639 nt of DNA from Escherichia coli. Its GTDB lineage: Bacteria > Pseudomonadota > Gammaproteobacteria > Enterobacterales > Enterobacteriaceae. The stretch lies in the NCBI RefSeq assembly GCF_003334405.1, contig NZ_QOWM01000060.1, one strand, 5' to 3'. The notes below the pieces were generated by a model that saw only the letters and a program-made list of their open reading frames with translations, had not been told where the DNA came from and made no database searches. A program made the translations under genes and the position numbers. Below are positions 1 through 639 of this stretch, piece by piece; positions within the stretch are counted from its first letter, which is position 1, and every line of letters starts with the position of its first letter.

Positions 1-639
1 GACCGAAAGGAGACTGCCACGCATAATTTCTTCAGCCCTTTCCATTCAAACGTGAAATCAATAAGTTCATCAGGGACATCGCAAACAATATGAAGACGGA
101 TTTCTTCTCTGCCGTGACTCTTTTCACTCATTGCGTAACTGTCATGCGCTGGATTATTTAATTCTTTCAGCGGAAATTTTTCCTCAAAGGCTTTATTTAG
201 CCGCCCCTGGTTTCCTTTTACCGCGAATAAATAATCACCTCCCTGTTTTTGTATCTTCTCTGCAATATCTTTCTGGCAACCCATCGCATCAGTTGTGATG
301 ATTTTTCCTTTAATATCCAGCATGTTAAGAAGTTCTGGGATAGCTGTAATCTCATTAGATTTCTCATCCGTCTTGATCTGTCCGATGACCAGACTGTGCA
401 TTGTTGAGAACGCACTAATGACATGAATCGCTCCCCTGCGGCGACTCTTGTCATAAGAGTGCCGGAGCGTTTTTCCATCAATTGCAATGACGTCTTTATC
501 ATCTGAAGAATGGCAGTCACGCATCCAGTTAATAAAGCACTCGTGAAATTTTGCAGGACTGATACAGGATACAACTCTGGCAATGGTATCGTGAACAGGA
601 ATACCATTTTCAAAATCACCATATTGCTTCAAAAAATCG
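1..639 (-). CDS. ISAs1-family (H-repeat-associated) DDE transposase, internal fragment, 5' and 3' partial; complete codons span 638..3 and both termini lie outside the window
   Basis: Seen in sequence: manual translation of the reverse complement gives 212 consecutive sense codons with no stop, from GAT (Asp) at 638..636 to CGG (Arg) at 5..3. The other two minus-strand frames are interrupted. The protein is not low-complexity and carries motifs I recognise from ISAs1/IS4-like transposases: IAIDGKTL (Asp at 477..479), ITTDAMG (Asp at 288..290) and AVKGNQ (207..218). From memory it closely resembles the E. coli H-repeat (H-rpt) protein group (YhhI/YdcC/YbfL/YbfD-like), but I cannot assign a specific paralog or confirm identity without a database search. 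Confidence 0.85.
1..639 (-). mobile_element. Interior of an ISAs1-family insertion sequence (H-rpt-like element); terminal inverted repeats and target-site duplications not in window
   Basis: Inferred from the transposase CDS filling the window. ISAs1-family elements are single-ORF insertion sequences, so the window necessarily sits inside the element. GC is about 42% by manual count (266 of 639), which is AT-rich compared with a typical enterobacterial chromosome and consistent with acquired mobile DNA. Confidence 0.7.

Follow-up and report, generated by a model that had tools for sequence, protein, structure and literature searches.

The DNA analyzed here, a 639-nucleotide stretch of Escherichia coli sequence referred to as the window, is the middle of an already known, annotated and ordinary transposase gene. 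The encoded protein is very probably an ISAs1-family transposase that has an N-terminal helical domain and a Tn5-type RNase H-like DDE domain, with D109, D172 and E306 as its catalytic triad. The codons of both aspartates were found inside the window, and the codon of the glutamate was found outside it. The features of the window are listed below, with residues numbered in the full-length protein unless called window residues and with conservation counted over the 125 sequences of an alignment, A1.

3..638, minus strand: internal segment (codons 56-267 of 378) of the transposase gene of an ISAs1-family ISEc1/ISEc5 H-repeat, yhhI/ydcC type
522..638, minus strand: C-terminal part of the N-terminal helical domain, DDE_Tnp_1_assoc (PF13808), window residues 1-39, E 4.4e-10, model positions 50-88 of 88
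3..500, minus strand: RNase H-like DDE catalytic domain (PF01609), from window residue 47 and continuing past the window end
477..479, minus strand: D109 codon (GAT), window residue 54, putative first catalytic Asp, on strand beta1, within VIAID-GK; Asp in 124/125; same PF01609 offset as IS10 D97
351..353, minus strand: E151 codon, window residue 96, in the motif KSNEITAIP (336-362), outside the canonical triad; Glu in 125/125
288..290, minus strand: D172 codon (GAT), window residue 117, putative second catalytic Asp, directly after beta4; Asp in 124/125; NF033592 position 183/184
210..218, minus strand: K196-G-N198, at the end of beta5; K196 and N198 each in 125/125
3..143, minus strand: first part (residues 221-267) of the predicted beta-rich insertion domain, which separates beta5 from the Glu-bearing helix and ends near residue 286
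96-116, minus strand: HGRxExR (H230-R236), in the first hairpin of the insertion domain; R232 and R236 in 125/125, E234 in 116/125
42-44, minus strand: W254, in the insertion domain; 118/125
218..622, minus strand: 134-codon ATG-to-stop ORF in the +1 frame of the transposase gene

Translation of the minus strand from position 638 to position 3 gave 212 codons without a stop, in agreement with the preliminary description, which had reported no frameshift or stop over this length. The window DNA was 100% identical to the yhhI and ydcC coding sequences in E. coli chromosomes, which RefSeq labels ISAs1-like element ISEc1 family transposase and ISAs1-like element ISEc5 family transposase, respectively. 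Of the 5,426 complete E. coli genomes, 5,343 had matches to the window; the median number of places in a genome was 5 and the maximum 11. One locus per type was retrieved. In the first (L001), yhhI lies downstream of rhsB and yhhH; in the second (L002), ydcC is preceded by an RHS remnant, ydcD and a decayed ISAs1 pseudogene. Each gene is a complete 378-codon ORF encoding a protein of 378 aa. Position 1 of the window corresponds to L001 3639, and the window encodes residues 56-267 of the full-length protein. The genes ybfD and ybfL are H-repeat paralogues of yhhI and ydcC. An Rfam scan of the window gave no match.

The copy had been described as intact rather than decayed, and this view was strengthened: no defect was seen within the window, the full 378-codon ORF is present at both of the retrieved loci with an identical window, and the annotation of each of the 20 genomes listed with an identical window shows an intact transposase gene. 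Compared with the Salmonella and E. fergusonii orthologues, dN was 0.08-0.13 and dS was saturated, giving a dN/dS of about 0.04-0.05. Against the Serratia and Dickeya orthologues, dN was 0.17 and dS was beyond saturation. The Serratia (L004, 77% identity) and Dickeya (L005, 75% identity) orthologues lie amid sugar-nucleotide and polysaccharide genes, unlike the Rhs context of the E. coli copies. Their neighbors, at L004 1-186 and 1525-1734 and at L005 1516-1734, encode a dTDP-sugar isomerase, an epimerase/dehydratase and a glycosyltransferase.

The yhhI and ydcC loci share 1,291 bp (L001 2693-3983, with the same coordinates in L002) and are unrelated outside this segment, which opens with CAGGGAAAGATC and closes with the complement of CAGGGCAAGATT. 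The element ends, CAGGGAAAGATCATCAAAAG and CAGGGCAAGATTACGAAAGC, form imperfect terminal inverted repeats with CAGGG ends and 14 of the first 20 positions matching. These repeats were found by comparing the two loci; a search for exact repeats missed them (longest exact seed, 5 bases). ISAs1 elements are about 1.2-1.5 kb long with short terminal inverted repeats, and their target-site duplication is 8-10 bp (ISfinder). A length of 1,291 bp and ends matching at 14/20 positions agree with this size and these repeats. No target-site duplication flanks either element (2681-2692 and 3984-3995 in both L001 and L002), an absence that is uninformative in old Rhs-locus insertions such as these. The two elements differ from each other at 14 positions, 12 of them in the first 308 bp and 2 in the last 47 bp. 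This pattern of differences suggests gene conversion between the copies. The central 936 bp (L001 3001-3936), which hold the whole window, show zero differences and, therefore, the window can be assigned to neither yhhI nor ydcC. L002 1607-2751, immediately upstream of the intact ydcC, holds a second ISAs1 copy whose annotation records a frameshift and an internal stop; as annotated, this copy extends 59 bp into the left end of the ydcC element.

The full-length protein matched the NCBIfam model NF033564 (transpos_ISAs1) with 417.8 bits against a cut-off of 70, with residues 29-344 aligned to profile positions 1-314 of 314. In Pfam, it matched PF13808 (DDE_Tnp_1_assoc) at residues 8-94 (E 1.9e-33) and PF01609 (DDE_Tnp_1) at residues 102-343 (E 2e-30), and both domains were still detected with the translation of the window alone. 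PF13808 then PF01609, in one ORF without a programmed frameshift, is the architecture of ISAs1. The NF033564 match, the Pfam architecture and the RefSeq label on identical DNA all bear out the original assignment to ISAs1. The wording then used was "IS4-like/ISAs1", and its first half holds at the level of the fold only. With the curated models of the IS4 family, NF033592 gave 18.8 bits against a cut-off of 115 and no other IS4 model matched. IS4-family transposases carry the signature Y-(2)-R-(3)-E-(6)-K (YREK) around the catalytic Glu (PMC2266710). This signature is absent around E306, where position -7 is I299 (Ile or Val in the family), position -4 is H302 (His in 124/125 of A1) and position +7 is L313 (Leu in 122/125). 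The family consensus around E306 is instead R-x-H-W-x-[IV]-E-N-x-L-H-W-x-L-D. Since the YREK signature is not found, "IS4-like" is a loose label for this protein.

Next, conservation was examined across the family. A search of a representative library clustered at 50% identity gave 30,587 relatives at E <= 0.001, and A1 was made up of the query and 124 full-length relatives with 35-54% identity (n=125). The motif IAIDGKTL starts at window residue 51 and ITTDAMG at window residue 114. The coordinates originally given for their aspartates, 477-479 and 288-290, are exact, and both codons are GAT. These residues had been recognized by motif as the first two of the DDE triad, a reading that is now supported by conservation, by the predicted fold and by their register with IS10 on shared profiles. 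The acidic positions of A1 were as follows:

D109, in the window: 124 Asp and 1 Glu of 125
D172, in the window: 124 Asp and 1 Glu of 125
E151, in the window: 125/125 Glu
E234, in the window: 116/125 Glu
E306, outside the window: 125/125 Glu
D314, outside the window: 125/125 Asp
E319, outside the window: 122/125 Glu
D320, outside the window: 124/125 Asp

Several acidic positions are thus equally conserved and, therefore, conservation alone cannot choose the triad. Among 120 close homologues, there was one Tyr at position 109, one Gly and one Trp at position 172, and no replacement at position 306.

The fold was predicted with AlphaFold. A single-sequence model was unusable (pLDDT 31.8), and an alignment-based model (AF2), with a pLDDT of 95.3 and a pTM of 0.92, was used in its place. 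The predicted elements, by residue, are these:

105-113: beta1, includes D109
126-133: beta2
138-145: beta3
148-161: alpha1, with E151 at its N-terminus
168-171: beta4, the next residue being D172
178-186: alpha2
190-195: beta5
221-286: beta-rich insertion, includes E234, with strands 221-229, 232-242, 259-269 and 278-286
292-316: long helix, includes E306

The order of elements in the DDE fold is beta1-beta2-beta3-alpha1-beta4-alpha2/3-beta5-alpha4, with one Asp on beta1, one Asp on or just after beta4 and the Glu on or just before alpha4 (PMC8230255). Insertion domains typically lie between beta5 and alpha4, as in Tn5 and other transposases (PMC8230255). In the AF2 model, D109, D172 and E306 satisfy this fold order. 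The three residues match the topology rule of the superfamily as modeled, whereas E151 and E234 do not. A search of PDB chains with the protein and the family profile returned chance matches only (E > 0.6). Neither a solved structure nor mutagenesis of an ISAs1-family member was found in the PDB or the literature searched, and that literature yielded nothing specific to the ISAs1 catalytic core or insertion domain and no experiment demonstrating catalysis by this protein.

Residues were then registered with Tn5 and IS10 through shared profile HMMs, with the Tn5, IS10 and query proteins cut at the candidate residues. The Tn5 sequence was confirmed against PDB 3ECP/1MUH, and the IS10 sequence was confirmed at 100% against plasmid R100. 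We take the IS10 triad to be numbered D97/D161/E292 (Bolland and Kleckner 1996). The Tn5 triad is D97/D188/E326, and the Glu of its YREK signature is catalytic (PMC1847836; PMC2566895). On NF033592, E306 of the query, E326 of Tn5 and E292 of IS10 all end at position 291. IS10 D161 falls at NF033592 position 184 (anchors 140 to 163 and 164 to 187). If short stretches are assumed to be ungapped, D172 of the query falls at position 183 or 184 (anchors 125 to 137, 145 to 157 and 198 to 209). Query fragments starting at residues 148-168 or ending at residues 172-186 had no match to an IS4 model in NCBIfam and, therefore, D172 is bracketed by the anchors at 145 and 198. Under the same assumption, position 3 of PF01609 corresponds to residue 102 of the query and residue 90 of IS10, which places D109 and D97 each 7 residues further on. 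Each of the two also ends a hydrophobic strand.

Two other uses of Pfam, and a direct comparison of profiles, were less helpful. Fragments beginning at the Asp itself were uninformative in Pfam, where local alignments trimmed the ends. The limits of PF01609 were also tried as a way to place the first Asp of Tn5, and this was rejected: in Tn5, Pfam matches from residue 125 onward and leaves out D97, and the limits are thus unreliable for holding the first Asp in every member. Comparisons by hhalign of the ISAs1 alignment with Tn5 alone, with a 77-member IS50-group alignment and on sub-regions, in both local and global modes, were non-significant (probability <1%). The expected pairing of E306 with E326 appeared in the C-terminal sub-alignment only (E 0.055). 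Since there was no significant profile-profile match, the link to Tn5 depends on the modeled structure and on weak similarity through shared profiles (E 7e-4 for NF033592).

Several alternative readings were weighed against this assignment. Non-coding DNA might by chance contain an open frame and both Asp motifs; only the prior that short motifs arise in this way can be cited for this. This reading was dismissed outright, given that the transposase frame stayed open in 0 of 20,000 mononucleotide shuffles, that the family model has an E-value of 2.7e-125 and that the same frame is an annotated CDS in thousands of genomes. A closer question is whether the third carboxylate is E151 (351-353) or E234 (window residue 179, 102-104), in which case the whole triad would be inside the window. 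The catalytic Glu of RNase H lies at the N-terminus of helix alpha1, which is the site that E151 occupies here, and the A1 counts for E151 and E234 do not separate either residue from E306. However, it is E306 that sits on the helix after the insertion, as the DDE rule requires (PMC8230255), whereas E151 is on alpha1 and E234 is within the insertion domain. E306 also shares a profile column with E326 of Tn5 and E292 of IS10, and, of 111 close full-length homologues that were aligned, 3 have Gly, Arg or Ala in place of E151 and none replaces E306. Topology and profile registration led to the rejection of E151 and E234 as the third residue, and we consider a triad complete within the window to be extremely unlikely. 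E306 is, therefore, the best-supported candidate for the third catalytic residue. Its codon is at L001 3752-3754, 113-115 nt past window coordinate 1, and the expectation that the Glu would be encoded beyond position 1 was correct. E151 may be an extra active-site or DNA-contact residue. It is very doubtful that ISAs1-family transposases use it as a fourth active-site carboxylate and are DEDE-like rather than plain DDE.

The remaining alternative accepts the intact frame and holds that the chromosomal H-repeat copies are nevertheless immobile, either as relics of gene conversion or as a host-retained (domesticated) gene. Neither K-12-type copy has a target-site duplication beside it, and the terminal repeats match at 14/20 positions. 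The two copies share 936 bp of identical sequence and differ at 14 positions, all near the edges, which suggests gene conversion, and ydcC has a decayed copy immediately upstream of it. In addition, a study of the K-12 mobilome detected no ISAs1 circles (10.1101/2024.07.17.603846). On the other hand, the triad and the other family-invariant residues are all present, and dN/dS stays at about 0.05 or below among species that carry the gene at different loci, as expected for a functioning transposase. E. coli genomes also carry the sequence at several places (median 5, up to 11), and an ISAs1-family element, ISPmar4, was trapped as a functional element in other bacteria (PMC3281130). Taken together, immobility seems unlikely. 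It is also unlikely, though conceivable, that the host keeps the Rhs-linked H-repeat copies for some role apart from transposing themselves. The favored reading remains an intact ISAs1-family DDE transposase gene.

Two further findings concern the rest of the window. The invariant K196 at the end of beta5 may be the counterpart of Tn5 R210, which contacts the 5' phosphate of DNA (PMC2566895). The 134-codon ORF in the +1 frame was considered as an overlapping gene and rejected. The open run in that frame is 136 codons long, which exceeds 99.5% of synonymous-codon shuffles (p 0.005 for that frame, 0.014 for any frame). In four orthologues, those of Salmonella, E. fergusonii, Serratia and Dickeya, the homologous interval contains 6-11 stops, and the ORF is thus due to chance.

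By analogy with characterized DDE transposases, D109, D172 and E306 would hold two divalent metal ions. These ions would catalyze hydrolysis at the 3' ends of the element and then strand transfer into the target. An insertion domain resembling those of Tn5 and piggyBac, with R232, R236 and W254, makes cut-and-paste handling of the DNA ends plausible. It is from that analogy that we infer metal binding and catalysis by this protein, and its route of transposition. YREK is absent, so the mechanistic details need not match those of Tn5. What had been a motif-based guess at two aspartates now has an explicit argument behind it: a triad of D109, D172 and E306 on a predicted Tn5-like fold that has an insertion domain and lacks YREK. 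The meaning of this result beyond correct annotation is small, since this is a standard gene with matches in almost all complete E. coli genomes. The triad assignment could, however, guide mutagenesis of the ISAs1 family.

Lastly, the gene was compared with known systems. No difference from ISEc1/ISEc5 could be detected: the sequence is identical over all 639 bases, and the 378-aa protein and the 1,291-bp element are the same. With the ISAs1 family as a whole, whose prototype is ISAs1 of Aeromonas salmonicida, the protein shares the full-length NF033564 match, the PF13808 and PF01609 domains and a single ORF. It also shares the invariant motifs HGRxExR, R-x-H-W-x-I-E-N-x-L-H-W-x-L-D and a longer one that ends in x-N-Q. 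Identity to diverse ISAs1 representatives is 35-54%, and the E. coli copies adjoin Rhs loci. The piggyBac transposase (PDB 6X67) has 14% identity to the query, and it is a eukaryotic enzyme that has additional domains and a DDD triad. Tn5 (IS50) transposase, of the IS4 family (PDB 1MUH, 1MM8, 4DM0), has about 9-11% identity to the query. Its N-terminal domain is PF14706, compared with PF13808 in the query, which also lacks both the Tn5-type C-terminal dimerization domain, PF02281, and YREK. The spacing between the two aspartates is 63 residues in the query and 91 in Tn5. IS10 (Tn10), also of the IS4 family, is closer in this respect, with a spacing of 64, but its similarity to the query is weak and mediated by profiles. 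IS10 has YREK, and the families, the element ends and the N-terminal regions of the two differ.
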